A DNA stretch of 64,000 nucleotides from a bacterium (GTDB lineage Bacteria > Patescibacteriota > Patescibacteriia > Veblenbacterales > UBA10138): contig JAGVEX010000015.1 of NCBI GenBank assembly GCA_020057885.1, positions 55,862-119,861 of the forward strand, read 5' to 3'. Positions 15,940 through 46,264 of this stretch are shown piece by piece. How positions within the stretch are numbered: the first letter of the stretch is position 1; the number at the start of each line of letters is the position of its first letter. The translations under genes and the position numbers were made by a program. Under the pieces are notes generated by a model. It saw nothing but the letters and a program-made list of their open reading frames with translations. It ran no database searches and had not been told where the DNA came from.

Positions 15940-15965
15940 ATTATTAAATATATTATATTAAGACA

Positions 15966-16442: not shown

Positions 16443-16447
16443 TATAT

Positions 16448-16930: not shown

Positions 16931-16970
16931 TCTATTTAATCATTCATCCGAATGGTTCAATAATAATAAT

Positions 16971-17909: not shown

Positions 17910-17913
17910 AAAT

Positions 17914-19008
17914 ATGAATAAATTTATTTGGTTTGTAATACCATTTGCGCTGGCATGTATCCTGATGCCTGTTTTGCTTATTAACAAAGTTAACACCCAA
18001 ATTAAACAATATAACGCCTTTCAGCTCATTAATAATCAAACACAAAATTCAACCAGTGATCTTTTACCAACAACTAGCTCTAAAATATCATTTTTAGCAG
18101 TTGGCGATATTTCCCTTTCCCGGAACGTAGCTGCTCAAATTATAAAACACGACGATCCTTTATTGCCCTTTAAAAATATAGCAAATTTACTCAAATCCAC
18201 TGATTTCAATTTTGCTAATTTAGAATCACCTTTTGCAGGAGGAAATTATTTTGGCAAAACAGGCAGTTTAGTTTTTAATGCACCACTCAATAATATAAAA
18301 GGGCTGGTGGAATATAATTTTAAAATACTAAACCTAGCAAATAACCACGCGCTGGATCAGGGTTTAAGAGGTCTAGAATATACACGTAATTATTTAACTA
18401 AAAACAATATTCAATATACAGGAGTTGGTAATAATCTCACCGAGGCCTGGCAGCCAGTTTTGGTTAAAGCAAATGATATTAAGATTGCTTTTATTGGCGC
18501 GTCTTACAGCTCAATTAACGATAATGCGAAAACCACTAATAATTATGTTGCCAGAATTGAAGATTTAAACATGCTTAAAAATGCCATAGCCAAAGCTAAA
18601 AAAACATCAGATTTTATAGTTGTTGCCATGCATGCGGGTACGGAATACACTTATAAACCGAACGAAAAACAAATAAACTTCGCTCACGCCGCTATTGAGG
18701 CCGGTGCTGATATGGTTATTGGTCATCATCCGCACTGGATACAATCAATTGAACAATATCAAGGCAAATACATTTTTTACAGTTTAGGAAACTTTATTTT
18801 TGATCAAATGTGGAGCCAAGAAACCAAAGAGGGTTTAATGCTTAAAATCATTTTGCAAAAAAATAGCGTGACTAAGCTTTACCAAGTCGAACTAATACCT
18901 ATTATAATAGAAAACTACAGCACTCCACGCTTAGCTAATGAACAAGAAAGTACTACTATGCTAAATCAGATTGGTATTAAAGAGAAAATATTATTTTCAG
19001 ACAACTAA
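17914..19008 (+). CDS. CapA/PgsA-family metallophosphatase-like protein
   Basis: Motifs FLAVGDISLSR, LANNHALDQG, HAGTEY and GHHPHW are present, with an N-terminal TM. Confidence 0.75.
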   Translation: MNKFIWFVIPFALACILMPVLLINKVNTQIKQYNAFQLINNQTQNSTSDLLPTTSSKISFLAVGDISLSRNVAAQIIKHDDPLLPFKNIANLLKSTDFNFANLESPFAGGNYFGKTGSLVFNAPLNNIKGLVEYNFKILNLANNHALDQGLRGLEYTRNYLTKNNIQYTGVGNNLTEAWQPVLVKANDIKIAFIGASYSSINDNAKTTNNYVARIEDLNMLKNAIAKAKKTSDFIVVAMHAGTEYTYKPNEKQINFAHAAIEAGADMVIGHHPHWIQSIEQYQGKYIFYSLGNFIFDQMWSQETKEGLMLKIILQKNSVTKLYQVELIPIIIENYSTPRLANEQESTTMLNQIGIKEKILFSDN

Positions 19009-32211: not shown

Positions 32212-33153
32212 TTATTCCGTAACTAACTCGGCTAGCACAACATATCGCTTAAGCGCCGTACCAATAGGCCAGGAGGTCTGCAAGGTCAACAAACGGCTCT
32301 TGTAGTCATTTTGGCCCAAATAATGCGTGTCAGAAGCGGCTACCACCTTACTCTCGGTGACTTTATAAGTGTAAACCTTGCCATTATGATCGCTTAACAA
32401 AATTTCAGCGCCAATTTTTATTTTAGGTAATACAGCAAACACAGTTCTATACTTCCCATTGCTCCACCAATAATCACTGGAATGCCCAAAAATATACACG
32501 TTGCCATACTCACCAGGATTTACTGTACCTGGATAATGAACCACGCCGTTTTTCAAACCTGCCTGAAAAGAATCCTCGTTGGCCTGCTCAACATAAATTA
32601 CCGGCACTAATAAATTAAGACTAGAAATAGAAAGTGTGTCAGCGGACAAGCTTTCTGCTGGTTTAGTTTGAGACTTAGGTGAAACTAAGGTGGCAATAAA
32701 ATTATTAGCGTTGCTTAAATTAGGTACCAAATATCGGTGATAATCAACTGGATTAACATACCAAAGCTCGCCAAGATTTTGCACTTGAATAAATAATTTA
32801 CCACTCTGTTTTTTAGCAAAGCTAAGATTAAGTTTTGTACGAGCAGTAGAAGATGAATAGTCAATCTCCAAGCCGCCCATAGGAATACGAGCTAGATCAG
32901 CATTAGTAATTCCAATCGGTTTTAAATTTGCCGGCAAACTTAAAACTTTCTTTATAGAAGAAGCGTTATTAGAACTCTGATTTTGTTGATTATCGCTTTG
33001 TGCTTGGGTAGCGGTTGGTTGCAATTGAGACACTATTATCGGCTCAGTTGAGTATCTCAAATTAGCCCAAATATACTGGGCGTTAAATGCCACTAATGCA
33101 ACCACACTCAAAATTAAGGCCCAACCAATTGTCCGCCAAGGATTTGTATTCAT
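32212..33153 (-). CDS. Sortase-family protein whose predicted catalytic Cys is replaced by Ser (TLQTSWP instead of TLxTC)
   Basis: An N-terminal TM and linker precede VHYPGTVNPGEYGNVYIFGHSS (His motif). The segment LLTLQTSWP...KRY aligns to the TLxTC...R signature. The Ser codon is TCC at 32272-32274. It is adjacent to an LPRTG protein. Confidence 0.6.
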   Translation of the reverse strand: MNTNPWRTIGWALILSVVALVAFNAQYIWANLRYSTEPIIVSQLQPTATQAQSDNQQNQSSNNASSIKKVLSLPANLKPIGITNADLARIPMGGLEIDYSSSTARTKLNLSFAKKQSGKLFIQVQNLGELWYVNPVDYHRYLVPNLSNANNFIATLVSPKSQTKPAESLSADTLSISSLNLLVPVIYVEQANEDSFQAGLKNGVVHYPGTVNPGEYGNVYIFGHSSDYWWSNGKYRTVFAVLPKIKIGAEILLSDHNGKVYTYKVTESKVVAASDTHYLGQNDYKSRLLTLQTSWPIGTALKRYVVLAELVTE

Positions 33154-33158
33154 ATTAA

Positions 33159-35885
33159 TTAATTGCTAACCCAATCTTTACCAACTTCCTTAAAACCAAT
33201 GACAAATAAAGCCAAAACCGGCAAAGCTAATAATATCGCCATAGGAAAACCTGTACGGGGAAGCTCTGTTGTAACACCAAGAACTTTTGGTACAGGTGGT
33301 GTTGTGATCGTCACACTCGCACTTTTTATTGTAGAGCAACCAACGCCACCGTTAAATTTAGCATAAACTGTTTTAATTCCATCACCTGATAATAATATCC
33401 AACTATGTGTTGGGGCTGGTGTTTCATAACTAGAGCCACTAAGATTAGCATTATTACTCAAAGCTATACCAGTTATGGTACTAGGATAAGTAAGATTTAA
33501 TGTTACGTTTGTTCCTGTAACAACAGGCCCTTCTACAATAGAAAAAACAAAATTGGCTGGATTAAAACCAGTACAAAAATCTCCACCACCTCCGCCGCCG
33601 CCTCCACCTCCCCCACCTTGGTCATCGTTAATCACTACACAAGTTTTTGTTTCACCAGCGGCAATAGTACCAGAACAATCGGAACCTAAACTCTTGCTAT
33701 AACCGAGTGATGAAACTTCATCAACACTATAACTGCCAGCATCCAAAGTAACAGTAGTACCTGCTTCGTCACCAGCGAATGAAGCGCTGGAGACGTTAGT
33801 ACCAGTTACGTTCATAGTAAAGTCGGCAACTGTTTTAGTTTTACCATTATCATTAATCACGTGTTTTTTTACAATTAAAGTTGCAGAAGATGGGGGTGTT
33901 GGTACATCACTATTAGTAATGGTACAAGTTTTACTCTCACCAACTAACAAAGCTGTTACGCCAGTACTGTCGCAATCGCCACTAAAAACAGCATTATAAC
34001 CCGTAGGAGTGGTGTCTTCACTCACAGTGTAAGTTCCGGGCAATAAAGTGTAAGAAACGCCTGTTTCAGAACCTACTGCTGGAGAACCAGCCACTTCCAA
34101 AATACCTTGTTTTAAATGTAAATTAAAATCAGTTGAAGTCTTTGTGCCACCGTGAGTATTAATAACCAACTTAATCACTTTAATAATACCGTGACTGGGC
34201 GGTGGTGGAGCATCGTCATCATTCGTTATAGTACAGGTCTTAGTTTCACCAATCGCAATAGTACCAGCACAATCAGTACCTAAGGTTTTAGTATATCCAT
34301 CAACTGTAGTTTCATCTACGCTGTAACTGCCAGCATCCAAAGTAACAGTAGTACCTGCTTCGTCACCTGCAAATGAAGCACTGGAGACGTTGGTACCAGT
34401 TACGTTCATGGTAAAATCGGCAGCTGTTTTAGTTTTACCATTATCATTAATAACGTATTTTTTTACAATAAGTTGTGGTTGAATATCATCATTAGTTATG
34501 GTACAAGTTTTAGTTTCACCAATCGTAATAGTGCCAGTACATTCATCTGAAGTACTAGAAGTATAATCAGCTACTGCTGTTTCAGAAACTAAGTATGTGC
34601 CAGCATCTAGGGTAACAGTTGTACCGGTATCCGAACCCGCAAAACTAGCAGATGAAACATTAGTACCCATGATATTCATAGTAAAATCCGCAGGAACTTT
34701 TATTCCACCATTGTCATTTATCACTTGTTTTTTCACAATAAGCTGTGGTGGAATATCATCGTTAGTTATAGTACAAGTTTTAGTTTCAGAAACTGCTAAA
34801 ATAACTGTGCCGTCTGTTGCGCAATCACTGGTAATAGAAGTCTTGTTATAACCAACTGGCGCAGTATCTTCACTCACGGTGTAAGTTCCTGGTAATAAAG
34901 TGTAGGTAGTGCCAGTGGTAGACCCAACTATTGGCGAACTAGCAACATCCACACCGGTATCCATAACATGAAGCATAAAGTCAGCGGCTGTTTTAGTACC
35001 GCCGTTATCATTTACTACCTGTTTTTTTATAATTAACGTACCAGTAGTTGGCGGTGGTGGAGCATCATCATCGTTTGTCACGGTACAAGTTTTGGTTTCA
35101 CCAACTGCGATAGTGCCAGCGCAGTCTGTACCTAGAGCTTTGGTGTATCCATCAACTGCAGTTTCATCTACGCTGTAACTGCCAGCATCCAAAGTAACAG
35201 TAGTACCTGCTTCGTCACCAGCGAATGAAGCGCTGGATACGTTGGTGCCTGTTACATTCATAGTAAAATCGGCAGCTGTTTTAGTTTTACCATTATCATT
35301 AATCACGTGTTTTTGAACAATTAAAGTAGCTTTACAATCTTTTGTCACACTAGTGTGGGTGGTATTACTAGAAACCCAAACAGTAAAATTCCCATATTCC
35401 AATGATGTAGCACGAGCTATATTTGTAATATCAAACGTATCACAAGAACTTGGTGTATTTACTGCGGCTGTCCAAACAATTTGACCAGCTTGACCTGGTG
35501 TTAAAGTATGTGCGTTCCAGGTTAAAGTACGGCTACCACTTTGGTATAAAGGAATTGCATAATAAGCAGTTGATATATTGCTACTAGTAGTAGAGTTAAC
35601 AAAAGTTAAATTAACATCTACTACGTCCTGCACTTTAATACCACCGCCCGTACAATTGGCAGTACCAGTATTTTTTATATCTATAGTGTAAGTTAAAGTA
35701 TCACCCGGATTAGCTGTGGCCGAACTCACCTGCTTAGTAAGAGTGAGGATACATTGCCCCGTGGCATTAACAGATGTCGGCGCTATAGCAATGTTGGTAG
35801 ATACCAACCCTGTTATTAACAAAGTGGCAAAAATACCAATTGTCCACCACCGCCAAGGTAACTTTTTGAATTTAAATATAAACAT
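33159..35885 (-). CDS. LPXTG (LPRTG) cell-wall-anchored surface protein with DUF11-like N-domain, several near-identical prealbumin-fold (Cna-B/SpaA-like) repeats and a Gly12 linker
   Basis: 908 aa with an N-terminal signal. The unit LIVKKHVINDNGKTKTAADFTMNVTGTNVSSASFAGDEAGTTVTLDAGSYSVDE...TKTCT.TNDD recurs. The C-terminus LPRTG, a hydrophobic stretch and KEVGKDW form a sortase sorting signal. Confidence 0.8.
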   Translation of the reverse strand: MFIFKFKKLPWRWWTIGIFATLLITGLVSTNIAIAPTSVNATGQCILTLTKQVSSATANPGDTLTYTIDIKNTGTANCTGGGIKVQDVVDVNLTFVNSTTSSNISTAYYAIPLYQSGSRTLTWNAHTLTPGQAGQIVWTAAVNTPSSCDTFDITNIARATSLEYGNFTVWVSSNTTHTSVTKDCKATLIVQKHVINDNGKTKTAADFTMNVTGTNVSSASFAGDEAGTTVTLDAGSYSVDETAVDGYTKALGTDCAGTIAVGETKTCTVTNDDDAPPPPTTGTLIIKKQVVNDNGGTKTAADFMLHVMDTGVDVASSPIVGSTTGTTYTLLPGTYTVSEDTAPVGYNKTSITSDCATDGTVILAVSETKTCTITNDDIPPQLIVKKQVINDNGGIKVPADFTMNIMGTNVSSASFAGSDTGTTVTLDAGTYLVSETAVADYTSSTSDECTGTITIGETKTCTITNDDIQPQLIVKKYVINDNGKTKTAADFTMNVTGTNVSSASFAGDEAGTTVTLDAGSYSVDETTVDGYTKTLGTDCAGTIAIGETKTCTITNDDDAPPPPSHGIIKVIKLVINTHGGTKTSTDFNLHLKQGILEVAGSPAVGSETGVSYTLLPGTYTVSEDTTPTGYNAVFSGDCDSTGVTALLVGESKTCTITNSDVPTPPSSATLIVKKHVINDNGKTKTVADFTMNVTGTNVSSASFAGDEAGTTVTLDAGSYSVDEVSSLGYSKSLGSDCSGTIAAGETKTCVVINDDQGGGGGGGGGGGGDFCTGFNPANFVFSIVEGPVVTGTNVTLNLTYPSTITGIALSNNANLSGSSYETPAPTHSWILLSGDGIKTVYAKFNGGVGCSTIKSASVTITTPPVPKVLGVTTELPRTGFPMAILLALPVLALFVIGFKEVGKDWVSN
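33700..35330. repeat. Three near-identical intragenic nucleotide repeats of about 280 nt (about 33700-33880, 34200-34480, 35040-35330) in the LPXTG protein gene
   Basis: The three copies are nearly identical at the nucleotide level. Confidence 0.7.
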
Positions 35886-36004
35886 AAAATGTGATTTAAA
35901 TTAAAAATGAGATCCTATTAATAATTAAGATCCCTACATTCTTAACATATATAGTAAAAATAATCAATAATTTATTTTCCACAACAACTATACTCACGAA
36001 ACGA

Positions 36005-36898
36005 CTATTTATTTAAAGCGGCTCTGGTGATTGGTCCTACAAAACCAGTTGCGGTAATACCATTTTTACGCTGATAAGCTTGTACGGCTCTAAAAATAGA
36101 CCAACTAAAATAGGTTGATATTTTCCCTTTATAAAAGCCTAAGATCGTTAAACGTTTTTGCAATTCTTTTACATCATTATCCCACATTCCTAGCCACATA
36201 TTATGTGTGAAAGAAAAATTAACCACACCAGAAACTATACCTGAAATTTTAGGTGGTTTATTATTACCGTTATTATTGTTGCTATTGTTGTTATTACTGC
36301 CGTTATTATTATTATTGTTATTTGAATTATCATTATTTGTTGTACCACCGCCGCCACCGCTTTGTGTTGTAATTAAACCAAGCAAGGGGGTACTGGCAGT
36401 AAACAATGTTCCTTCGCCTGAAACGCCGACTTGAATATCAAATCCTACGCTGCCATTTTGATAATTATTATTTGCTGAATTATTAAATGTTACTGCAAAA
36501 TTATATTGCGTTTGTACGCCGCTTGCTATTTCCGAAAGATTTGTTACGTCATTGTCATACAAACTTCCTAAGGTGCCTATGTAAAGAGTTGCAGTATTTT
36601 GAGTGATAACAACATTCAACTGCGAAGCTAAATTATCATTATCAATAAACGAATTTAACTTTACACCAATAAGTTTTGGGGTTGAGGTATTGTTTGTTAC
36701 CTTAACATAACGAGTTACTGTATTGCCGGGCAAAAAATTTACTTCGCTAAACAGTGGTTTATATTCAAATTCAATTAAAATATTGGGTGCAACAGGTGTA
36801 GCTAAAGCTGAATGTGGCCAAACAAAAAATAATGAAAAAGCGCCAAGTATAACTAAGCTTAATTTTATAATATTAAATTTCTCAAAAAAACTATTCAT
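36005..36898 (-). CDS. Secreted protein with N-terminal beta-rich domain, poly-Asn/Gly/Ser low-complexity linker and C-terminal peptidoglycan-binding domain (PG_binding_1-like)
   Basis: Classical signal peptide (ALA|TP). The linker is NNNNNNNGSNNNNSNNNN. The C-terminus VKELQKRLTILGFYKGKISTYFSWSIFRAVQAYQRKNGITATGFVGPITRAAL matches the PG-binding repeat. Confidence 0.65.
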   Translation of the reverse strand: MNSFFEKFNIIKLSLVILGAFSLFFVWPHSALATPVAPNILIEFEYKPLFSEVNFLPGNTVTRYVKVTNNTSTPKLIGVKLNSFIDNDNLASQLNVVITQNTATLYIGTLGSLYDNDVTNLSEIASGVQTQYNFAVTFNNSANNNYQNGSVGFDIQVGVSGEGTLFTASTPLLGLITTQSGGGGGTTNNDNSNNNNNNNGSNNNNSNNNNGNNKPPKISGIVSGVVNFSFTHNMWLGMWDNDVKELQKRLTILGFYKGKISTYFSWSIFRAVQAYQRKNGITATGFVGPITRAALNK

Positions 36899-36906
36899 AA
36901 ATATTA

Positions 36907-37974
36907 TTAATTAATTGGCGCGGTGCCATCATTGGGTGTTAAAGGGACCAAGGTTGGTTCTGGTAAAATTGGGTCCTCTACTGGTGCTAAGGGATCAATT
37001 GGAGGAATTAATTCATCAGTTGGTGTAATTAGAGAAGTCGTTTCAATTACTGGATCGCTCGGAATTATAGGCTCGTTAACTAATACATCGGTGGATAAAA
37101 TTTCAATTACCGCATCTGGGTCAAGACTTTCTTGGGTGCCTAATACTTTTGGATTAATTACAGTGCCATCATCAATAATACTTGAACTGCGTGGTAGGCA
37201 CCAAGTACCAGCCGTAACAGTACCGCTTATTTGCGCGGTATCGGTAAAGTAGCCAACGCCATAACTCGGGGCTTCCAACTGCCAAGCTTTAAACAAAATA
37301 TTAAAATTACAAGCCTTGCCACGCAAACTCTCATTATTACTGGTAAGCTTTAAAGCAAAAGTCCAATCTTCTGGTGTGCTAAACTCAAAAGCCCCACTGC
37401 TAAATCCTACCAAAGAACCTGTATATACGGTGTTACCTTTTAGCATAGCTGTTAGTTCTAAAGCTACACATAAGTCTCCACTTACAACATCAGACTCAGT
37501 TGAATATTTAAAATTAATCGCGCCGGTTTGTGTTAATAATACTGGCAAGGCAGTGGTTTCATTGGGCTTAATAGCCAAATTACTGCCTGCTGGCTGATAC
37601 TCCCCTGCCACGGCATTCAAACTTAATGAAATGGTAGATAAATTATTATCTATTGACTCTTCGGTATCGCTAAAATAAGAACTAGTGCCAATTATTCCTG
37701 TTAATTCAGTTGCTAATAAGGCGATTATGGCCACTAGCGTGCCACCCTTCAAAACAAACCTTCTTAATAATATTCTATTTGCTTTACGGCGTTGTAATTT
37801 GTGTAAAATTATTTTGTAACCTCTATACACCCTGCGCTCAGACCGATACATAGCCAAAACCAATTTGCGCCCGCGTTTAAAATACAAAGCCACCGCTTTG
37901 TGTGCACGTCGAACATAGCGTTGTAACACTCTGCTTATTTTTCGCACTCGGCGTTGTAATTTTAGCTGACGCAT
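36907..37974 (-). CDS. SipW-cognate-signal family protein with an unusually long Arg/Lys-rich N-terminal region and a Pro-rich C-terminal tail
   Basis: A highly basic N-terminus of more than 35 aa precedes a TM, then GTSSYFSDTEESIDNN (SipW-cognate-like motif). The C-terminus is PIIPSDPVIETT...PILPEPTLVPLTPNDGTAPIN. Confidence 0.55.
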   Translation of the reverse strand: MRQLKLQRRVRKISRVLQRYVRRAHKAVALYFKRGRKLVLAMYRSERRVYRGYKIILHKLQRRKANRILLRRFVLKGGTLVAIIALLATELTGIIGTSSYFSDTEESIDNNLSTISLSLNAVAGEYQPAGSNLAIKPNETTALPVLLTQTGAINFKYSTESDVVSGDLCVALELTAMLKGNTVYTGSLVGFSSGAFEFSTPEDWTFALKLTSNNESLRGKACNFNILFKAWQLEAPSYGVGYFTDTAQISGTVTAGTWCLPRSSSIIDDGTVINPKVLGTQESLDPDAVIEILSTDVLVNEPIIPSDPVIETTSLITPTDELIPPIDPLAPVEDPILPEPTLVPLTPNDGTAPIN

Positions 37975-37983
37975 AAATTAAGC

Positions 37984-38559
37984 TTAAACTATCTTAGTTT
38001 CTGCTTTCTTTTTATTTCTTAGCTTAGCTATTTCCTGCCACACTTTTTTGCCTTCGTCGTACATAAGAATAAGTGCTGGCAAAATAACTAATACTGCAAA
38101 ACCAATCGGCTTTTTAGCCGCCGCCACACCATAACCAACGTAAGGCATACTGAATAGTGTTTTGCCAATTACATCGCGTCCGCGCACCTCACGCATATCT
38201 TGGTTATTATTGGCATCACCTTTGGTTAGATAAACTGGGCGACCAGAATCATTTTTTACTTCCACAATACGATGCGTAGTGGGCGGTTTAACTTTAGAAA
38301 ATGGTCCAAAAGTAATAATATCACCTACTTGATAACTACTAGCTGGTCTAACTACCACCACGCTGCCAGTTTTAATCGCCGGCTCCATGGAGCCCGATTG
38401 CACCACAAAAGCTTTAATTCCACCCGGTATGGGCAAAGCGGAAGAAATTAAGACCAACACAATAAACAGCGCTACGGCCAAAAACGCGTAGGAAAGTATT
38501 TTATAAATTGTATCAATAACTTTTTTCATAAATAAACTATTTTTTATTATGGCGCGCAA
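37984..38559 (-). CDS. sipW: Signal peptidase I, SipW/ER/archaeal type (S26B-like)
   Basis: An N-terminal TM is followed by VVQSGSMEPAIKTGSVVVV (catalytic Ser box) and TTHRIVEV (His box), then a C-terminal TM. At about 180-191 aa the size fits. Confidence 0.75.
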   Translation of the reverse strand: MRAIIKNSLFMKKVIDTIYKILSYAFLAVALFIVLVLISSALPIPGGIKAFVVQSGSMEPAIKTGSVVVVRPASSYQVGDIITFGPFSKVKPPTTHRIVEVKNDSGRPVYLTKGDANNNQDMREVRGRDVIGKTLFSMPYVGYGVAAAKKPIGFAVLVILPALILMYDEGKKVWQEIAKLRNKKKAETKIV

Positions 38560-41267
38560 TATTGCACGTGTTCTGCTATATTAACAGCTTCCAACCGATT
38601 TTTCATTGCTTCAAACTGAGTATAAGTAGCACTGGGATTATTCAGCAACGCATCAGCCTGCGCGGCTAATTGCGCTAAAGTAATACTTTCACCCGGCACT
38701 TGTCCTCCTCCTGCCCCAAAATAAGCAATACTAAATTTAAGCGCTAATAATTGCCCTCTTACTCTATTGCGCATGGTATCAGAATAACGGACAAATACTT
38801 CCTGAGCTTGAAATGCCGTACTAATTATTTCACTGCCTAAAATTTGCGGTAAAATCCATTGGCTAGGATGATTTATCCAATAACCTTTTGATTTAACTTG
38901 TAAATCTACACATTGCAACGGATCGTCATTAGTTACGGTGCAAGTTTTGGTTTCGCCTTGAACAATAATACCGCCGCAGCCCGCACCAATTGTTTTGGTG
39001 TAACCAAAGCTATCAACCTCGTCAACAATATAAGTGCCCGGCTCAACAGTAACTGCTGTACCATCTTCGGAACCAGGTAAATTAAGCACCATTCCGCTAT
39101 TCATACTTATTTTCATGGTGAAATCTCGGGCTTGTTTAGTGCCGCCATTATCATTAATAACGTGTTTTTTTACAAGCAAAATTGTATCACAGGTAGAACG
39201 CGTGCCTGTGGTATGTACTGTGTTACTCTCCACCCACTGCCAATTTAATTCATTAGCAGAAATTCGGGCAGTATTAGGAATATCAAATGGACCACAAGGC
39301 GGCTGCTTAATATTAGCGCTCCAGCTTACCCAACCCGATTGTCCCGGAACAACTGTGTGCGCGTTCCAGCGTAAAATACTGCCGTCAAATACCGAACCAT
39401 AATAACCCGCGTCAACATTACTGGAATGGGTTTCAGTAACATAAGTCAAAAGCGGATTAACCGTATCTTCTATCTTTACTCCCCCGCCCGTACAATTCAG
39501 CTTGCCAATATTCTTAAAATTAATAGTATAAGTTAACTGCTCACCCGGATTAGCAGTAGTTTTATTAACCTGTTTAGTAATTTGCAAAATACACTTAGGC
39601 GGCACGTAAACATCATTGTTTGTCACTATACAAGTTTTAGTTTCTCCGACCGCGATAGTACCAGCACAATCGGCGCCTAGAGTTTTATTATAATCAGCTA
39701 CAAAATTTTCATCCACGCTATAAGCTCCCGCGTCAAGCGTTACGTTAGTACCAGTTTCGGAGCCAGTAAACGAAGGCATTGAAACATTTGTACCAGTAAC
39801 ATTCATAGTGAAATCAGCTGCCAACTTAATACCGCCATCATCGTTAATTACGTGCTTTACTACTATCAAATGAGCGTGCTTATCCTCTGGCGGTTGGCAA
39901 ATAAAATTCGGATTATTGCGCGCTTGTTCAACTTGGAATGATAAATCAACTTTCAGCGAATCGGTTTGCGATTCGTTACCCATAGTAGAACCATTACAAT
40001 TAAGACTGTTAGCACTAATATTAGCGGTCAGAGTGCCGGCGCACCACGCTAAACCAACATAACTAGTTGTATCGCCAGCTAAAGCTCCAGCAACGGGCGT
40101 ATACAAGGCATAATATTTATTATCAAATGCCTCTTGAGCTGTTACAGGATTAGATAACAATGGTTCTTCGCCAGGCTCCCAAATATTATCGCCATCATCG
40201 CGCCATATAAATACTGTAACGTGTTCGCCGAGTTCGCCATTACCCGGGCCGTCGGTTGAATCTACCAATGCCTCTGGTTTGGTTAAACCATTATCGTCAT
40301 CTCTTAAATTGGTGGCCAAAAGACAGGCGTAAGCATCGTTTGTATCCACGTGCAAGCTTATAGTGTTCTCACCTTTATCGTTTGGCTTAACGCTATTTAA
40401 ATCAAAAAATTTAGTAGTAGGACCCAGATCAGTTAACTCCCAAGTGCTGGCGCAACTCTGCCCGACTAATGAATTCGAACGGCAATCTAAATTAGAAAGT
40501 TTTACTTCATCTAAAAATACTCCGTAACTTTCGTCCAGTCCGCCGCCCACAAACTCCACACGCGTAGTGGTGGATGTAGTAATTACTTCGTATTCATAAT
40601 ATTCCCAAGCTGTATTGCTAATAGCCGAACCATTGGCCGCCAAATCTGCCACTTGTGTACCGCCCAAATTAACTTTGAGTTTATTATTATCCGCTCCTGT
40701 GCCAGGCCGCGGCGAAAACTTAAAGCTTAAGCGATATTTATTGCCAACTACAGTATTCACATCCTGATAAATTTTTACCAAAGCCGGCTCGCCGTTTAAG
40801 CTACCATTTGGCCCATCCCAATCTGCATCAAGCTCGGCATATTGATTACCACTGCTTGGCAACCAACCATTCACGCCACGGTGAAACTCCACTTGAGCAA
40901 TCAGCGGCCTAATAGCCGACCCAAATGTTGTTTGGGTTCCTACCCATTCTACATTCCAACCAAGCGAGAGGGTACCCGAGGGGTAAATATCCCATTTTTT
41001 ATCCGAAGTTACTGTTGGATTCTCAAAATCACCATTTTGTAACAAATTAGTGCTGGTTGGTACGCAAGATTGTACCCACACGCCATCTTTACAAACTATG
41101 CCATTGTAATGCCCTTGGCTATCTACTTTAAGATTCAAATCACCCGCCACAAACGTATTGCCATTTGAAGATTCAGTATCACTAACAAAAGCACCAGTGC
41201 CACCGGTGATGATTATCACCCCCGCACCTATTGCTAATATTGCTAATAATAATTTCTTGGCTGACAT
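38547..41267 (-). CDS. Large secreted protein with SipW-cognate (TasA/camelysin-like) signal and N-module, followed by a DUF11-like domain and prealbumin-fold (Cna-B-like) repeats
   Basis: The N-terminus MSAKKLLLAILAIGAGVIIITGGTGAFVSDTESSNGNTFVAGDLNLKVDS matches the cog_SipW_sig-like pattern (GT.A.FSDTE.S..N.F.AG.L.L). Repeats such as LVKKHVINDNGGTKQARDFTM are shared with the LPXTG protein. Confidence 0.75.
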   Translation of the reverse strand: MSAKKLLLAILAIGAGVIIITGGTGAFVSDTESSNGNTFVAGDLNLKVDSQGHYNGIVCKDGVWVQSCVPTSTNLLQNGDFENPTVTSDKKWDIYPSGTLSLGWNVEWVGTQTTFGSAIRPLIAQVEFHRGVNGWLPSSGNQYAELDADWDGPNGSLNGEPALVKIYQDVNTVVGNKYRLSFKFSPRPGTGADNNKLKVNLGGTQVADLAANGSAISNTAWEYYEYEVITTSTTTRVEFVGGGLDESYGVFLDEVKLSNLDCRSNSLVGQSCASTWELTDLGPTTKFFDLNSVKPNDKGENTISLHVDTNDAYACLLATNLRDDDNGLTKPEALVDSTDGPGNGELGEHVTVFIWRDDGDNIWEPGEEPLLSNPVTAQEAFDNKYYALYTPVAGALAGDTTSYVGLAWCAGTLTANISANSLNCNGSTMGNESQTDSLKVDLSFQVEQARNNPNFICQPPEDKHAHLIVVKHVINDDGGIKLAADFTMNVTGTNVSMPSFTGSETGTNVTLDAGAYSVDENFVADYNKTLGADCAGTIAVGETKTCIVTNNDVYVPPKCILQITKQVNKTTANPGEQLTYTINFKNIGKLNCTGGGVKIEDTVNPLLTYVTETHSSNVDAGYYGSVFDGSILRWNAHTVVPGQSGWVSWSANIKQPPCGPFDIPNTARISANELNWQWVESNTVHTTGTRSTCDTILLVKKHVINDNGGTKQARDFTMKISMNSGMVLNLPGSEDGTAVTVEPGTYIVDEVDSFGYTKTIGAGCGGIIVQGETKTCTVTNDDPLQCVDLQVKSKGYWINHPSQWILPQILGSEIISTAFQAQEVFVRYSDTMRNRVRGQLLALKFSIAYFGAGGGQVPGESITLAQLAAQADALLNNPSATYTQFEAMKNRLEAVNIAEHVQYCAP

Positions 41268-41301
41268 TTGATAAATTGATTACTTAATATTATCTAAATT
41301 A

Positions 41302-42678
41302 TTAATTGAATGTTTGATTAGTATTCACGGCGTTGTATGTACTTGTGATAGGGCTAGACCATGTGAAATCAGAATATTCGTTTCCTGTTCCTTGAAGCTG
41401 TAAAGAATAACCTATAGGGGTAGTAGATGATTCAGTAACACCAATGTCAACCGACATCATACCAGCAGCCGGACCGTTTGCGGCTGTAAAACTACCACCA
41501 TAACTTAAAAATTTAACGACTGTATTATCCGACTTTACGAGTGCAAGACCATCAGGTGAACCATTCTGGACGCTAACCTTAGCAAACCACAATGTACCAA
41601 AACCTCCTTGTTGACTAGGAATTGTACTGGAAAGATTTATAGTGTCGTAACTTGCTTGATTGCTACCATTATACAAAACGACTTTCCAACCAATTAAATC
41701 CGTACCTGCAACGCCTGCAATTTCCACACCTTCATTGGCATCTGTCCCGGTATTGTCATAATGAATCTCATTAATCCATACCTTAGCTACCTCGCAAGCA
41801 TCCCCAATGCCGTTACTATCTGAATCTAGTTGGTCAGGATTAGAAATATTCGAACAATTGTCACAAACGTCCCCGACACCGTCCGCATCTGTATCTATTT
41901 GATCAGGATTATAAGTTGCAGGACAATTATCTCGCGCGTCAGCTATACCATCAACATCACCATCCACTGACAAAGGAATACATCGGAAATTGGTATTATT
42001 TCTGGCCTGCACTACATTAAAAGAAATATCACCAATCAGACTATCGGTTTGCACTTTATTTCCGATTCCAGCAGGTAAATTCCAAGAGACGCCAAGATAT
42101 CCAATTGTTCCGCTCGGCAATGCTCCCGTGCCTGTGGTTGAATCGTAAACCGGTAATACGCCGTTTATTGGATAACCAGTAGCCAATGTTTGCTCAGTTC
42201 CATTTTGGATATTGTCGCCAGCAACTCCTCCCCCTGTACCATCGTCTCTCCAAACAGTCCAAACCATAGTATTTTGTAATTCACCTTCGCCGGCTCCGCC
42301 AGTCGTATCAACCACACTTTCTGGTTCGGTTAATCCATTATCATCGCTAGTCAAATTGACAACTTCCGCGCAAACCCAGGCATCGTTGTTTATCACATGC
42401 AAACTAATAGTGTTCTCGCCGTAGTCGCCTGGCTTAACATCAGAAAAGTTAAAAAACTTATCACTAGTTGGAACCAAATCTTTCAACTTCCATAAACCAC
42501 ATTCGCTTGAGGCAACACCATTGTAACTGCACTGACTATCAACCTTAAGGTCAATCGCTCCGGCAGTAAAGGTATTACCAGTGGAAGTTTCAGTATCGCT
42601 AAACAAAGCGCTGGTACCAGCCACCACCACAGCCCCAACGGCTGCAAGAATGCTTAAACTTAAAATAATTTTCTTCAT
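41302..42678 (-). CDS. Secreted protein with SipW-cognate signal and TasA-like N-module, thrombospondin type-3-like Ca-binding repeats and a C-terminal lamin-tail domain (LTD)
   Basis: The N-terminus is MKKIILSLSILAAVGAVVVAGTSALFSDTETSTGNTFTAGAIDLKVDS. TSP3-like repeats follow (DGDVDGIADARDNCPATYNPDQIDTDADGVGDVCDNCSNISNPDQLDSDSNGIGDAC). The LTD-like segment is VWINEIHYDNTGTDANEGVEIAGVAGTDLIGWKVVLYNG. Confidence 0.75.
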   Translation of the reverse strand: MKKIILSLSILAAVGAVVVAGTSALFSDTETSTGNTFTAGAIDLKVDSQCSYNGVASSECGLWKLKDLVPTSDKFFNFSDVKPGDYGENTISLHVINNDAWVCAEVVNLTSDDNGLTEPESVVDTTGGAGEGELQNTMVWTVWRDDGTGGGVAGDNIQNGTEQTLATGYPINGVLPVYDSTTGTGALPSGTIGYLGVSWNLPAGIGNKVQTDSLIGDISFNVVQARNNTNFRCIPLSVDGDVDGIADARDNCPATYNPDQIDTDADGVGDVCDNCSNISNPDQLDSDSNGIGDACEVAKVWINEIHYDNTGTDANEGVEIAGVAGTDLIGWKVVLYNGSNQASYDTINLSSTIPSQQGGFGTLWFAKVSVQNGSPDGLALVKSDNTVVKFLSYGGSFTAANGPAAGMMSVDIGVTESSTTPIGYSLQLQGTGNEYSDFTWSSPITSTYNAVNTNQTFN

Positions 42679-42875
42679 ATAAATTAGAGTTAAACTAAAT
42701 TATTTTGGGCTATTGGCTACTAGCTATATGCTAATAGCTATTTAACGCCTCGGCTCTCTCCGCAAATTTTTTCGATTTACGAAGAGGAGCAGGCTTTAAA
42801 CGCCTAACGCGGTTATTGTTGTTTTTGTAACCAAATAAATGGTTAGAGCAACTAATTGCTTAGATATAACGATAA

Positions 42876-44258
42876 TTATGGTAACGGATTGTCGTCGTTC
42901 GTGATAGTACAAATAATGGCTTCGCCTTCATCAAGCGTAGCTGTACCACCGAGCACGGCTGGACACTTAATATTTCCAATAATAGATACGAAGGTGTAGC
43001 CCACGCGCCCTACCTCATTAATAGTGTGCGGAATGTTTGAATTTACCGCCACCGAGGTATTGTTTTGAACAAGGTTGCCGTCAATATTAAGGCCGAACAT
43101 AGTTGGTCCAGCGGTACCACCATTGTCATTAATCACGTTTTTTATAAGCGTGATATTACCAGGCAAGTCATTATTTACTATAGTGCAAGATTTGTTATCA
43201 CCTGCATTAAGAGTAACTTGACCAAACTGATCACAATCGGGTCCACTGAACGATGCTACATATCCCATAATACCTGTCTCGGTCACCACATAGTTACCTG
43301 GTGGTACCTGAACTGGTACGCCAGATGTAACTGGAAATGGTGTCATGTAATTATCAACAAATAATTGATAATCACCAACGACATTATTACCGCCATTATC
43401 ATTTACAATTTCTTTAGTAACTGTAATAGTTGCGAGTCGAGGTTTACCGTCGCAAGTGTAATTTGGATTGTGTCGAGCTTGTACAGCGCGGAAAGCAATA
43501 TCCATCGTCACGCCATCAGTTTGGCTTTCGTTGCCAAGCTGAGTACCGTTACAAGTAAACCCAGAACCCTGCGCTCCCAAAGGACTATCATAGTCGCCTG
43601 GTGTAACAGGATTAAGAGTCATTGTGCCATAGCACCAACCTTTGGCAATATAGTAAGTTTCGCCACCTAGCGCCGGGCCGGGTACACCGGTCCAAACGTT
43701 TGTATTGGCATCAGCCAAAACAGCTGAAAACTTTTTATCCTCACCAAATAAACTTAGGATGGTTTGCTCGCCGTCAGAAAGCAAGGTTTCGCCTTGTTCC
43801 AAAACATTGTCGCCATCATCCACCCACCAAACCATTTTAACCAAGTTGCCAAGTTCACCATCCCACGTATCATTCACGTCTTCTGGTGCGTCAACTATAA
43901 GCTCTGGTTCGGTAGATGAAATATCGTTGTTAGTTGTAAGCGACATATCCAAACACAAGTATGCGTCGTTGTTGTTAACGTGGAGAGAAATAGTATCCTC
44001 ACCCTCGTCATCTGGCTTTAGATCGGTAAAGTTGATAAGTAAGAGCCCGTTGCCTAAATCCGAAGGGCCGAAAGTAGTTATATCCGAAATCGCTCCGTTA
44101 TAGTAACTCTCGTTATCTACTTTAAGATCAATCGCGCCAGCCACAAAAACGTTACCGCTAGCTGTTTCGGTGTCGCTTAAGAAAGCGCTAGTCGCTCCAA
44201 AACCGACAACCACAGCTAAGGCTCCAATAACCGCTAAACTGAAAATTATTCTTTTCAT
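42876..44258 (-). CDS. Secreted protein with SipW-cognate signal and TasA-like N-module plus C-terminal prealbumin-fold repeats
   Basis: The N-terminus is MKRIIFSLAVIGALAVVVGFGATSAFLSDTETASGNVFVAGAIDLKVDN. C-terminal repeats include ITVTKEIVNDNGGNNVVGDYQLF...PGNYVVTETG..GY and ITLIKNVINDNGG. Confidence 0.75.
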   Translation of the reverse strand: MKRIIFSLAVIGALAVVVGFGATSAFLSDTETASGNVFVAGAIDLKVDNESYYNGAISDITTFGPSDLGNGLLLINFTDLKPDDEGEDTISLHVNNNDAYLCLDMSLTTNNDISSTEPELIVDAPEDVNDTWDGELGNLVKMVWWVDDGDNVLEQGETLLSDGEQTILSLFGEDKKFSAVLADANTNVWTGVPGPALGGETYYIAKGWCYGTMTLNPVTPGDYDSPLGAQGSGFTCNGTQLGNESQTDGVTMDIAFRAVQARHNPNYTCDGKPRLATITVTKEIVNDNGGNNVVGDYQLFVDNYMTPFPVTSGVPVQVPPGNYVVTETGIMGYVASFSGPDCDQFGQVTLNAGDNKSCTIVNNDLPGNITLIKNVINDNGGTAGPTMFGLNIDGNLVQNNTSVAVNSNIPHTINEVGRVGYTFVSIIGNIKCPAVLGGTATLDEGEAIICTITNDDNPLP

Positions 44259-44335
44259 AGCAGTGCATCTTTCCTCTTACCCTAATGCTGAAATCTAAAT
44301 AATCTCAAAATTAAGTTTGAGGAAAGTGGAGTTAG

Positions 44336-45184
44336 TTAGCGCCTGGTAGGAAGTACGCAAGTAAAGTTAGGGTTGTTTCTGGCTTGTTCAACACGGAAAG
44401 CTATGTTAGCTGTCATGGTGTCGGTCTGAGCAATGTTACCCAATCCATTACCATCGCAAGTTATGATTGCATTAGCAGTTGGTGTCGCGGCGGTTACATT
44501 CATTGTACCTGCGCACCAAGCCAAACCAATGTATCTTGTTGTATTACCTGCCAAAGGACCAGTGATGGAATTAGCTAAGGTGTAAGACTTGCCACCAAGT
44601 ACGTCGCTGGCTGGACCATAAAGGTTAGAGAATAACTGTTGCTCGCCTGCTTCCCAAATATTGTCGCCATCATCTGCCCAAGCAGTGAAGTAAATGCCTT
44701 GTGCGAGGTCACCAGTTGTGGTTCCATCGGAAGCATTTAGTACTGAGCCATCTACCAAGTCTTCAGGAGTTGTAATGCCATTGTCGTCGTTTGCAGTAAT
44801 ATCTACATCAACACAGGCATAAGCGTCGTTGCTGTCAACGTGAAGCGAGATTGTATTCTCACCAGAGTCGCCAGGCTTAACATCCAAAAAATTAAAAAAC
44901 TTTTGTGCACCAAGATCAGCTAGCTCCCAAGAACCATCGCAAGGTGTTCCGGCCTTTGGATAAGCGGCATCACCAGACCAAATATATGGATATTGACCAT
45001 CTGTAGTAGCAACACAAACATTACCATTGTAGTGTTGTTCACTATCAACAGTTAAATCGATAGCGCCAGCAGTAAAGGTGTTACCAGTGGATGTTTCAGT
45101 ATCACTGAAAAAAGCAGTGGTGCCAGCAACTACCACAGCCCCAACGGCTGCGAGAATTGCCAAGCTTAAAAGAATTTTCTTCAT
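44336..45184 (-). CDS. Secreted TasA/camelysin-like protein with SipW-cognate signal (shortest paralog, candidate major subunit)
   Basis: The N-terminus is MKKILLSLAILAAVGAVVVAGTTAFFSDTETSTGNTFTAGAIDLTVDS. It shares the core module (KFFNF.DVKPGD.GENTISLHV, WCAG, QTD...F..EQARNNPNF.C) with the other paralogs. Confidence 0.75.
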   Translation of the reverse strand: MKKILLSLAILAAVGAVVVAGTTAFFSDTETSTGNTFTAGAIDLTVDSEQHYNGNVCVATTDGQYPYIWSGDAAYPKAGTPCDGSWELADLGAQKFFNFLDVKPGDSGENTISLHVDSNDAYACVDVDITANDDNGITTPEDLVDGSVLNASDGTTTGDLAQGIYFTAWADDGDNIWEAGEQQLFSNLYGPASDVLGGKSYTLANSITGPLAGNTTRYIGLAWCAGTMNVTAATPTANAIITCDGNGLGNIAQTDTMTANIAFRVEQARNNPNFTCVLPTRR

Positions 45185-45265
45185 AGTATTTTATAAGGTT
45201 AATTGTTAATTAGTTGCTTCTGCTTTCAGCCCAATAAATTAGGATAAAAGCGAAGCTTTACGTCA

Positions 45266-45285
45266 TTAGAAATATAAATTTCTAA
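45266..45285. promoter_or_regulatory. Inverted repeat TTAGAAAT-ATAA-ATTTCTAA, about 80 nt upstream of the first TasA-like gene; candidate operator
   Basis: 8-bp arms with a 4-nt spacer in the upstream region of the minus-strand gene starting at 45184. Confidence 0.35.
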
Positions 45286-45299
45286 TTGATGTGGCACGG

Positions 45300-45580
45300 T
45301 TTTATTTTTAATAACGTTTATCGCAACGTTTAAGCGTTCGACCTTTGGTGGCCACATCGAGGGCTGAGGGTTAAAGCAAGGCACGTGCCCGGCATTACTT
45401 ACACCCTTAGCCCCCTTTTGGCCAAACCGAGATTGCCAAACTAATGAAGCCTCCACGGGCTTACGCCCGCGGTATCCTTCATTTCGCCTTGCACATTCAT
45501 CTACGACTTTACGGTCATAGTCTTCTGCGAAGGCGGATAAAAATTTAGCATGCCCCGTCTAACCACAAGGTGTGTGGCTT
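45300..45580. ncRNA. GC-rich ORF-free stretch within a 1.08-kb intergenic region; candidate structured RNA (class undetermined)
   Basis: GC is well above the flanks, with several short hairpins (for example CGGGCTTACGCCCG). The only ORF is not protein-like. The conserved cores of RNase P, SRP and tmRNA could not be recognised by eye. Confidence 0.2.
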
Positions 45581-46074
45581 AAAAATTATTAATTAATTTA
45601 ATTCTTCAGTTTGTGTTTTTCTTTTTTTCCAAAACAAAAAACCACTACTATAAAAATAAAGTAGTGGCTCCATTAGAGCACTTGGCAAAAAAATTGTGAT
45701 AACACCATTTCTTTAACCTATGTGACATTTTAATATAAGGTTACTACACAATTTAATAATTAAGCTGTCTAGGCCTTTTCATCTCGGTTTATTACCTTAC
45801 CGCACCACTAATAGGCTGTCAAGAAAAAGTTATGCACAACCCCCTTTTCCCCCAACCTCAAAACAAACCAACCGAACACTAAACTTATTCAGTTATAAAA
45901 TTTATGCCAATTTTAAAGCGTTTTATTTATTAATCCCTAACTAATACTAACTAGTAGGCGTTAGCATTAACCTAAATGAACCATCTGCTGGTTTACCCGC
46001 CTGCGACTCGATTGAACTCAGCAAAATTCGGTACGCAAGGTGGATAGGAGCAAAAATACGTAAATCATAAATTA

Positions 46075-46120
46075 ACCAACATAACACTTTTTGACGGCCG
46101 TCAAAAAGTGTTATGTTGGT
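46075..46120. repeat. 46-bp perfect palindrome ACCAACATAACACTTTTTGACGG|CCGTCAAAAAGTGTTATGTTGGT
   Basis: Read directly. It shares the GTCAAAAAGTGT / ACACTTTTTGAC half-site with the palindrome at 4080-4117, but with the arm order swapped around a GGCC core. Confidence 0.8.
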
Positions 46121-46211
46121 GATTTAGAGTTGTGCTTTGCGTTAATGAATCCTCCACAAGCTTACTGCAGATAGGCCGAGCAGATGCGAAGGTGGACAAA
46201 AACAAAAATAA

Positions 46212-46231
46212 GGCCGGACTCTAGTCCGGCC
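46212..46231 (-). terminator. Rho-independent terminator for the CAP-domain gene
   Basis: The GGCCGGACT-CTA-GTCCGGCC hairpin is followed on the minus strand by TTATTTTTGTTTTTG. Confidence 0.7.
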
Positions 46232-46264
46232 TTTAAGTTATAACCAACAATTTTACTCCAAGAC

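Follow-up and report, generated by a model that had tools for sequence, protein, structure and literature searches.

Two probably separate surface-protein systems with common stalk domains lie side by side in a Patescibacteria genome

Introduction

Fibre polymerisation by strand donation is established for TasA of Bacillus subtilis and for the archaeal bundling pilus AbpA, and TasA homologues have already been noted in Patescibacteria through the family PF12389 (PMC9245690). Pam pili are an extracellular filament specific to the candidate phyla radiation (CPR) that is formed by donor-strand exchange between paralogous subunits of one operon, with a proposed membrane or wall anchor protein, and their pilins, PamA and PamB, have Ig-like folds, Sec signal peptides and PapD/FimC-like membrane-anchored chaperones (bioRxiv 10.64898/2026.03.03.709456). 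According to a 2025 survey of stalk domains (PMC12617251), DUF11 has been renamed CLIPPER, and one such domain was solved, CnaA-like and closed by an isopeptide bond between Lys and Asn; for SpaA_2 the prediction is a CnaB-like isopeptide domain that in many cases also has a disulfide; and both are typically stalk elements of fibrillar adhesins. The stretch of DNA described here, 64 kb of the Patescibacteria contig JAGVEX010000015.1 (hereafter the window), encodes two large surface proteins that contain both of these domains: a 908-amino-acid (aa) protein that ends in an LPRTG sorting signal (protein A), and a 906-aa protein with a SipW-type signal peptide and a TasA-like N-terminal module, the N-module (protein B).

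We describe the domain content and gene order of the region, its conservation across loci and its divergence figures as observed, and weigh what they mean. The region as a whole is best explained, in our judgement with good likelihood, as two separate CPR surface-protein systems that are neighbours and draw on one set of widespread stalk domains, with old, partly homogenised repeats in A. The locus is mostly ordinary, being a combination of known parts, namely isopeptide stalk domains, a TasA/SipW-type system and an LPXTG/sortase cassette.

Results

Two gene groups on one strand

All open reading frames (ORFs) between 29175 and 45184 are on the minus strand. The order of transcription is the genes for the 282-, 460- and 458-aa proteins, B, the 191-, 355- and 297-aa proteins, A, the 313-aa sortase homologue, mnmA and alaS. 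Domains were assigned by scans with Pfam and NCBIfam, and the SpaA_2 repeats were delimited into eight units, A1 to A6, B1 and B2 (Table 1). Homologous loci and contigs are given L-numbers, and homologous proteins from databases P-numbers.

Two surveys were made. The survey of TasA-like loci covers 82 loci: 80 GTDB loci found with the profile of the N-module, the window, and L001, a Logan contig from the nearest sequenced relative, in which the orthologue of B is 87% identical in protein. The survey of sortases is a scan of JGI metagenomes with patterns taken from parts of the protein other than the tested site, and 80 of the 222 relatives found were fetched. Any sortase is present in only 4 of the 82 TasA-like loci, and an N-module or sipW gene is nearby in just 1 of the 80 sortase loci. 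Because the two groups so seldom meet, the LPRTG gene and the sortase gene are assigned, from gene neighbourhoods, to an independent two-gene cassette that lies beside the TasA-like operon in this lineage. A scan for promoters and terminators gives counts close to the shuffle expectation, which is compatible with the LPRTG gene being transcribed together with the upstream operon or separately.

Stalk domains shared by A and B

A and B share one DUF11 domain each and a prealbumin-like repeat, as the initial annotation had pointed out. The repeat is SpaA_2 (PF19403, 154 bits for A and 56 bits for B), and is present in six units in A and in two in B. Over 139 aa, the DUF11 domains of the two proteins share 50% identity, and B1 is 69-76% identical to A1, A4 and A6 in protein sequence. 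Comparison with 701 units extracted from 142 database proteins indicates that these values are not peculiar to the locus. A1 is 75% identical to B1, and 78% identical to units of the unrelated proteins P0142, P0039 and P0011, while B1 is 74% identical to a unit of P0179. For A2, A5, B2 and both units of the 460-aa protein, foreign units are as close as, or closer than, any unit of the window. The DUF11 domain of B is likewise nearer to that of P0106 (60%) than to that of A (50%). SpaA_2 arrays are very common, with more than 1,300 significant proteins among the candidates scored, from Patescibacteria, Actinomycetota and DPANN archaea. Because A1 and the DUF11 domain of B match unrelated proteins as well as or better than each other's gene, the sharing is not regarded as specific to the locus, and SpaA_2 and DUF11 are, as far as sequences tell, common stalk building blocks rather than products of a locus-specific exchange.

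All eight units of A and B keep Lys5, the Glu of YxVxE (around position 54), the Asn of CxVxN (around position 84) and the pair Cys68/Cys80; the isopeptide triad was checked at the level of these motifs only. For DUF11, LTKQV, VQDVV and TNIA are candidates for the triad from sequence alone, with PDB 9IFR as the model of a Lys/Asp/Asn triad. A search of PDB sequences with the DUF11 domain of A gives no match. Each unit of A and B would form an intramolecular isopeptide bond, and A would be a rod. The shared module is best named a stalk rather than an adhesive, because of the roles described for these domains (PMC12617251) and because the motif is kept in all eight units. The proposal of one adhesive module in two display modes is therefore broadly right about the two modes, since A ends in a sortase signal and B starts with a SipW-dependent TasA-like module, and wrong about the word adhesive, since the domains are known or predicted isopeptide stalk domains (PMC12617251). 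Sortase anchoring and the TasA-like module appear to be alternatives to one another, because none of the 222 proteins with a TasA-like module in the 82 loci has a C-terminal anchor.

LPRTG protein A

A consists of a signal peptide, DUF11, six SpaA_2 units, a Gly12 linker, a C-terminal beta module and the LPRTG signal. This architecture is that of P0129 and P0147, which have a signal peptide, DUF11, a SpaA_2 array, the C-terminal module and ELPRTGFP; the C-terminal beta module also precedes LPRTG in P0106, P0112, P0129 and P0147. LPRTG occupies residues 875-879 of A, and is followed by FPMAILLALPVLALFVIGF and the tail KEVGKDWVSN. A has the N-terminal signal peptide, the C-terminal LPRTG, the hydrophobic stretch and the charged tail of an LPXTG protein, and is the sole LPXTG-type ORF of the window. 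A reading of A or B as a SpaA-type pilin of a sortase pilus was ruled out, because neither protein has a YPK or PK[ND] motif; the adjoining sortase scores 33.7 bits on the class C pilus-sortase model, against a cut-off of 160.

Neither the exact 908-aa protein nor a near-identical one is present in a collection of 15 billion proteins. The sortase, 906-aa and 297-aa neighbours of A from the same contig do occur in this collection. No close full-length homologue is found among 1,303 matches to A, and neither GTDB genomes nor JGI metagenomes yield an orthologue of its first 199 aa.

Two other endings were seen. In L001, an additional gene (15541-18564) for a 1007-aa protein with VWA, SpaA_2 and SdrD_B domains lies between the PG_binding_1 gene and the orthologue of the LPRTG gene. 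This protein carries the C-terminal module of A up to KVLGVTT, and then PG_binding_1 in place of LPRTG, which is another anchor swap. P0008, P0015, P0019 and P0054, SpaA_2/DUF11 proteins of Saccharimonadia-like origin, end in LVNTG rather than LPXTG, followed by a hydrophobic tail and basic residues. LVNTG may be a variant sorting signal.

Serine-type sortase

The sortase homologue adjoining A has zero cysteines. Its TLxTC motif reads LLTLQTSWP, and the His (in IFGHSS) and the Arg (in LKRYVV) are kept. The HMMER alignment to the solved sortases 4D70 and 8T28 places a serine opposite the catalytic cysteine, so that the His-Cys-Arg triad has Ser at its Cys position. The scores with the NCBIfam models of sortase classes are all far under the cut-offs. 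Besides the window, the loci with serine-type sortases are L058 and L084 to L163. Ser at the catalytic position and the FGHS motif are present in 80 of the 80 fetched relatives, 44 of which lack cysteine altogether.

An ORF that ends in LP[RKV]TG with a hydrophobic tail lies directly upstream in 46 of the 80 loci (38 of the 56 loci with at least 600 nucleotides (nt) of upstream sequence, and 8 of the remaining loci), and 20 of these 46 ORFs contain SpaA_2. In a slightly narrower neighbour window, 41 upstream ORFs carry LPRTG (37), LPVTG (2) or LPKTG (2). This conserved pairing with substrate genes argues that the serine-type sortase is functional, and we infer that the window enzyme uses serine in catalysis. 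No description of serine sortases was found in the open-access papers searched.

TasA-like operon

The operon at 36005-45184 is classed by its genes and their conservation as a CPR form of a tasA-sipW type operon. Two or more tandem N-module paralogues are present in 77 of the 82 loci, two to five being the rule, and a SipW-type peptidase in 74. An N-module is fused to one or two SpaA_2 units in 42 loci. A C-terminal extension of at least 30 aa beyond the module is found in 162 of the 222 N-module proteins. An exhaustive search with the N-module profile yields 4,219 cluster representatives; the best 150 matches are mostly 400-660 aa long and have the module at the N-terminus. B itself has a 100% identical match on a 204.8-kb NCBI/JGI contig of Patescibacteria, and its homologues found in protein databases carry names such as Patescibacteria, Kaiserbacteria, Paceibacteria and similar.

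The N-module is about 250 aa long in the four paralogues, and extends from the SipW-type cleavage region through the motif (Q/R)xRNNPxFxC. SipW-type signal peptides are present in these four proteins and in the 355-aa protein. The TIGR04088 scores (cut-off 19) are 31.8 bits for the 282-aa, 30.9 for the 458-aa and 19.8 for the 460-aa paralogue, and 18.1, just under the cut-off, for B. PF12389 (Peptidase_M73, cut-off 22.5) gives 28.4 for the 282-aa paralogue, and 22.9 and 22.5 otherwise, and matches only residues 4-50 (profile positions 4-50 of 196). For the 282-aa paralogue, the AlphaFold2 (AF2) model from 22 sequences reaches a mean predicted local distance difference test score (pLDDT) of 68.6, with about 80 in the core, and its N-terminal strand is disordered. 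Residues T22, D28, E30, N35, F37, G40, D43 and L44 of this strand are invariant in the N-module. The top three Foldseek matches of the model are the TasA structures 5of2, 5of1 and 8aur, at probabilities of 1.00, 0.99 and 0.94. TasA, a jelly-roll fold, ranks first in two independent whole-PDB fold searches. A match of the N-module profile to Pvc7 among PDB sequences was dismissed as chance. The N-module is, as the models have it, TasA-like in fold and context, and a distant member at best.

The genes downstream of B encode the peptidase and two accessory proteins. The 355-aa protein has a highly basic N-terminal extension of about 75 aa ahead of its SipW-type signal peptide, and its family is linked to the N-module via the signal peptide and first strand (hhalign, 97%). 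Its homologue is present in 34 of the 82 loci, in ten of which (L003, L004, L007, L009, L010, L014, L020, L040, L042 and L053) it is fused in frame to the SipW C-terminus. Such a fusion would make a peptidase with its own substrate-like domain. By hhalign (96%, 107 columns), the N-domain of the 297-aa protein is a homologue of the 355-aa core, and it has no SipW-type N-terminal strand; its homologues occur in 20 of the 82 loci. The homologue in L058 (15408-17525) ends in LPKTG and is followed by a sortase, and the window version ends in PG_binding_1. The homologue in L023 (9990-12110) is also followed by a sortase, and no LPXTG-type signal was detected in it. A homologue search with the 297-aa protein returns only the protein itself and its orthologue. 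These endings suggest that the 297-aa family is a wall-anchoring base subunit.

In the proposed mechanism, SipW would cleave the signal peptides and thereby mature the subunits, and the paralogous N-modules would co-polymerise, with the N-terminal strand of each donated to the neighbouring subunit as in TasA and AbpA. The parts behind the N-module would project from the fibre: isopeptide stalks with a helical head, lectin-like inserts, or the thrombospondin type 3 (TSP3) and lamin-tail-domain (LTD) regions. A PG_binding_1 domain or an LPXTG signal would attach the protein at the fibre base to the wall, so that in the window the 297-aa protein would probably be the tether. We infer fibre polymerisation and wall attachment by analogy.

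The 458-aa paralogue has TSP3 calcium-binding repeats and a weak LTD match behind its TasA-like module. LTD recurs in the homologues of the 355-aa protein in L017, L023 and L074.

The 1,080-nt stretch at 45185-46264, upstream of the first TasA-like gene, has neither an ORF of at least 60 aa nor an Rfam match; an Rfam scan of the whole window matches zero families. It shares 77% identity with the corresponding region of L001 along about 730 nt. Two strong terminator-like hairpins follow the preceding gene on the minus strand (46076-46119 and 46210-46233). The stretch may be a long leader or regulatory region.

SipW-type protein B

B is built, in this order, of the TasA-like N-module with a DUF642 insert, B1, DUF11, B2 and a helical C-terminal domain, so that these last four would be the parts that project from the fibre. 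Lectin-like DUF642 insertions of the same type occur in P0003, P0005, P0007 and P0013, where the N-module spans about 430 aa. The helical domain is a bundle in the AF2 model, and its first and last strands pair, so that both ends meet. A fold search gives no specific PDB match for it. In the LPRTG protein P0106 this domain comes directly behind the signal peptide, and P0112 and P0003 have it in the interior of the chain.

The helical domain of B is a candidate functional head by its model. P0106 has the helical domain at the N-terminus and the wall anchor at the C-terminus, and B has the presumed fibre attachment at the N-terminus and the helical domain at the C-terminus. This mirror arrangement fits one payload in two display modes, in which the payload is the helical domain and not the repeats. 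P0003, in which DUF11 follows the helical domain, is a counter-example.

Repeat array of A

The six units of A are arranged in the order a-b-a'-a-b'-a. Three copies of about 280 nt, almost identical at the nucleotide level, had been counted earlier; six units are present. The three copies were correctly placed and are A1, A4 and A6. Their nucleotide identities are just 86.0, 82.9 and 82.2% over 258 nt, which is not near identity, and are exceeded by the protein identities of 93, 85 and 84%. The longest exact runs among them are 44-62 nt. The other three units, A2, A3 and A5, are only 53-71% identical in nucleotides to any unit.

The numbers of synonymous substitutions per synonymous site (dS) among A1, A4 and A6, calculated by the Nei-Gojobori method, are 0.60-0.73, and the ratios of nonsynonymous to synonymous substitutions (dN/dS) 0.05-0.19. 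The three units are mosaic. Identity is 90-92% in nucleotides 1-165, where dS is 0.32-0.36, and drops to 68-76% in the 3' 93 nt (166-258), where dS exceeds 1.3 or is saturated. Mismatched codons are concentrated in the 3' third (Fisher P = 8.5e-5 to 0.005), and identical runs of 20 codons exceed those of shuffled sequences in two pairs (permutation P = 0.0003 and 0.0001). The A1-A2 and A4-A5 linkers both begin with DAPPPP, with 17 identical bases, and therefore an [a-b] super-unit is considered to have been duplicated; dS is 1.35 between its b halves and 0.73 between its a halves. L001 is 84.7% identical to gene A over the first 615 nt of the gene, so that the 5' identity among the paralogous a-units is higher than the identity of the orthologues.

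The dS values, the linkers, the super-unit and the comparison with L001, when combined, support the view that the three similar units are old paralogues, and that gene conversion has made their 5' two-thirds partly uniform. This conversion of the 5' part would date from about the time of the split from L001 or later. The recent duplication suggested by the initial annotation is not borne out, since dS of even the best copies is high and is saturated in the 3' third. Gene conversion, which it had named as well, holds in part, given the identical 20-codon runs and the 5' identity of paralogues above that of orthologues. The repeats of A provide the lesson that high protein identity does not imply recent duplication.

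Assembly of the array

Two independent contigs bear on the assembly. L082, a Logan contig from SRR6489855 of the same strain, matches 7,949 nt of the window at 100% identity, and starts at gene position 2317 (window 33569), 12 nt (4 codons) downstream of the Gly12 tract. L001 stops 54 nt inside A1. Logan assembles with k = 31, and the stretches spanned by repeated 31-mers in gene A are only 39-78 nt long. The breaks of Logan contigs at the array are expected at this k, and thus do not show an error. The assembly hazard noted earlier is real as fragmentation, with two Logan contigs stopping at the edges of the array, and not as collapse. Collapse is unlikely, because the units are 14-47% diverged and the frame is intact.

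Table 1. Positions in the window of the features described in the text
Feature	Position	Strand	Evidence
282-aa paralogue, bare N-module	44336..45184	-	ORF list
460-aa paralogue, two SpaA_2 units	42876..44258	-	ORF list; Pfam
458-aa paralogue, TSP3 + LTD-like region	41302..42678	-	ORF list; Pfam
Three further TasA-like paralogues of B (the above)	41302..45184	-	Pfam, NCBIfam, N-module hidden Markov model (HMM)
SipW-type protein B, 906 aa	38547..41267	-	ORF list; Pfam; NCBIfam
TasA-like N-module of B, aa 27-457	39897..41189	-	N-module HMM, E 6.5e-100
DUF642 / choice-of-anchor-C insert in the N-module of B, aa 74-257	40497..41048	-	PF04862 27.4 bits; TIGR04362 52 bits
SpaA_2 unit B1	39612..39869	-	Unit alignment
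DUF11/CLIPPER of B	39183..39599	-	PF01345 37.9 bits
SpaA_2 unit B2	38922..39179	-	Unit alignment
Cys-bounded helical domain, 124 aa, C-terminus of B	38550..38921	-	AF2 pLDDT 92.6, predicted template modelling score (pTM) 0.86
SipW-type (archaeal/ER-type) signal peptidase I, 191 aa	37984..38559	-	TIGR02228 115 bits (cut-off 51.85); NF046067 122 bits
355-aa accessory protein, SipW-type signal peptide, TasA-related core	36907..37974	-	NCBIfam; hhalign
297-aa accessory protein: Sec signal peptide, core, poly-Asn linker, C-terminal PG_binding_1	36005..36898	-	PF01471 57.5 bits
LPRTG surface protein A, 908 aa	33159..35885	-	ORF list; Pfam
DUF11/CLIPPER of A, aa 44-185, right after the signal peptide	35331..35756	-	PF01345 42 bits; TIGR01451 40.8 bits
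SpaA_2 unit A1, type a	35067..35324	-	Lys5 / YSVDE / CTVTN motif; Cys68/Cys80 pair
SpaA_2 unit A2, type b, 94 aa	34755..35036	-	Protein identity 56% to A5, 56-58% to A1/A3/A4, 51% to A6
SpaA_2 unit A3, type a', diverged	34485..34742	-	Nucleotide identity 66-71% to A1/A4/A6
SpaA_2 unit A4, type a	34215..34472	-	Versus A1: 86% nt, 93% aa
SpaA_2 unit A5, type b'	33906..34184	-	A4-A5 linker DAPPPPSHGI parallels A1-A2 linker DAPPPPTTGT
SpaA_2 unit A6, type a	33621..33878	-	Nucleotide identity 82-83% to A1 and A4
Gly12 linker of A	33582..33617	-	Sequence
C-terminal beta module of A, aa 769-874, ends KVLGVTT	33264..33581	-	Sequence comparison
Sorting signal of A: LPRTG, hydrophobic stretch, tail KEVGKDWVSN	33162..33263	-	Sequence
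Sortase homologue, 313 aa, 5 nt downstream of A	32212..33153	-	PF04203 76 bits

Discussion

The array of A and the domains shared with B invite three explanations other than old, partly homogenised paralogues and common stalk domains. Recent intragenic amplification, with a copy number likely to vary between strains, would account for the exact runs of 44-62 nt, for the 90-92% identity of the 5' 165 nt and for the presence of the [a-linker-b] super-unit twice with nearly identical linker starts. We consider it unlikely nevertheless, since whole-unit dS is 0.60-0.73 with a saturated 3' third, and dS of 1.35 between the b units points to an old date for the duplication itself; a second complete gene copy for a comparison of unit numbers was not found. 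It is less likely still that the array, or its number of units, was produced artificially in assembly, through collapse, expansion or chimerism of repeats. Both L001 and L082 end at the borders of the array, and the exact 908-aa protein is absent from a protein collection that contains its neighbours. On the other side, nucleotide differences between the units amount to 14-47% and their linkers are distinct, the ORF is intact with the conserved motif and cysteine pair in every unit, and normal paired reads can bridge repeated stretches as short as those seen. Least likely of all, to the point of being nearly dismissed, is that A and B came to share their domains by recent exchange in this genome, through duplication or shuffling between the LPXTG and SipW-type genes. 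B1 is the nearest relative of A1, A4 and A6 in the window outside gene A, and the 5' first 100 nt of both DUF11 regions are 73% identical. Nevertheless, unrelated proteins are closer to A1 (78%) and to the DUF11 domain of B (60%, against 50% for A), one comes to 74% of B1, dS between the units of A and B1 is saturated, and B1 and B2 have clear orthologues in the relative.

B may also be read as a protein that is not displayed on a fibre, in which the N-module, a generic jelly-roll, serves just the secretion and folding of a protein that is soluble or loosely bound to the wall. The alignment of the N-module with the B. subtilis TasA sequence (verified against 8AUR) is insignificant (hhalign probability of 2.5%) and the Pfam match is restricted to the signal-peptide region, as this reading would have it. 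TasA nevertheless ranks first in the two whole-PDB fold searches, a dedicated SipW-type peptidase adjoins in 74 of the 82 loci with two to five tandem paralogues as usual, and the N-terminal strand, although invariant in sequence, has no structure in the model of the monomer, as is expected of a donated strand. We therefore regard the absence of a fibre as rather improbable. Several points do count against two separate systems of the kind proposed here. For the TasA-like system, these are the insignificant alignment just given, the failure of an N-module profile search of PDB sequences to find TasA, the limitation of the Pfam TasA-family match to residues 4-50, and the size of the passenger (about 450 aa) and insert (about 180 aa) of B, which might not suit a regular fibre; B could be a monomer, or else a subunit present in small numbers or at the tip. 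For the cassette, canonical thioester catalysis is impossible in a cysteine-free sortase, and the tail of the sorting signal of A is without net positive charge. For the array, the count of six units comes from a single assembly, as both independent contigs stop at the array, and gene conversion is deduced from three units of 258 nt.

Patescibacteria are thought to live attached to host cells, and to our knowledge few of their surface structures have been characterised. A broader reading, which we offer tentatively and hold to be possible rather than probable, is that the TasA-like module is a general display scaffold of Patescibacteria with exchangeable passengers, and that a CPR-wide clade of sortases with a serine nucleophile anchors LPRTG stalks. 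Neither passenger-bearing TasA-like fibres nor a natural serine sortase was found in the literature searched, so that passenger-carrying TasA-like modules in Patescibacteria and the clade of cysteine-free serine-type sortases are, as predicted from sequence, variants for which no description was found. Much of the repertoire of large surface proteins of Patescibacteria could be read as known stalk modules on two anchoring chassis, which helps to annotate proteins now called hypothetical, such as the cluster representatives with a TasA-like module. If the passenger-bearing fibre is real, TasA-type fibres would include adhesin carriers as well as matrix scaffolds. Serine-type sortases, if active, would be natural cysteine-free transpeptidases, relevant to enzymology and protein ligation.

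Comparison with known systems

The operon resembles that of Pam pili in that it is from CPR and encodes several paralogous subunits and an anchor candidate. It differs from it in having TasA-like jelly-roll modules and a SipW peptidase, and no chaperone-like gene was detected in the locus. A Pam-pilus reading was set aside for this difference in fold and machinery, the two systems being compared by description; the fold search with the N-module gives TasA and not chaperone-usher pilins.

The likeness to the TasA/TapA/SipW system of B. subtilis and to AbpA is closer. It consists of the SipW-type signal peptide motif (A)F(F)SDTE..NTFTAG.IDL and the KPGD motif, the adjoining archaeal/ER-type signal peptidase with accessory genes beside it, and the jelly-roll of the N-module, whose best PDB matches are TasA and then AbpA. 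Unlike the B. subtilis system, the window has four tandem paralogues rather than one major subunit, most N-module proteins bear C-terminal passengers, one paralogue has a DUF642 insert, and the accessory proteins are related to TasA, with a SipW fusion of one of them in 10 loci. In profile comparison, the similarity to B. subtilis TasA is insignificant.

A is similar to fibrillar adhesins and LPXTG proteins of the MSCRAMM type (microbial surface components recognising adhesive matrix molecules), such as those with Cna B or SdrD B repeats, in having a signal peptide, tandem CnaB-like units, a CnaA-like DUF11, LPXTG and a sortase gene. Each unit has the Lys/Glu/Asn motif and the cysteine pair of isopeptide stalks, and the architecture is as in the survey (PMC12617251). 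Unlike these proteins, A has no recognisable adhesive head, its DUF11 is distal, its host is a CPR bacterium, and its partner sortase has serine at the nucleophile position. This sortase is similar to the housekeeping sortases of classes A, D and E in its PF04203 fold family, in the aligned His (FGHS) and Arg, and in the position of its gene next to that of an LPRTG substrate. It differs from them in that the Cys of TLxTC is replaced by Ser, in the window as in all 80 relatives.

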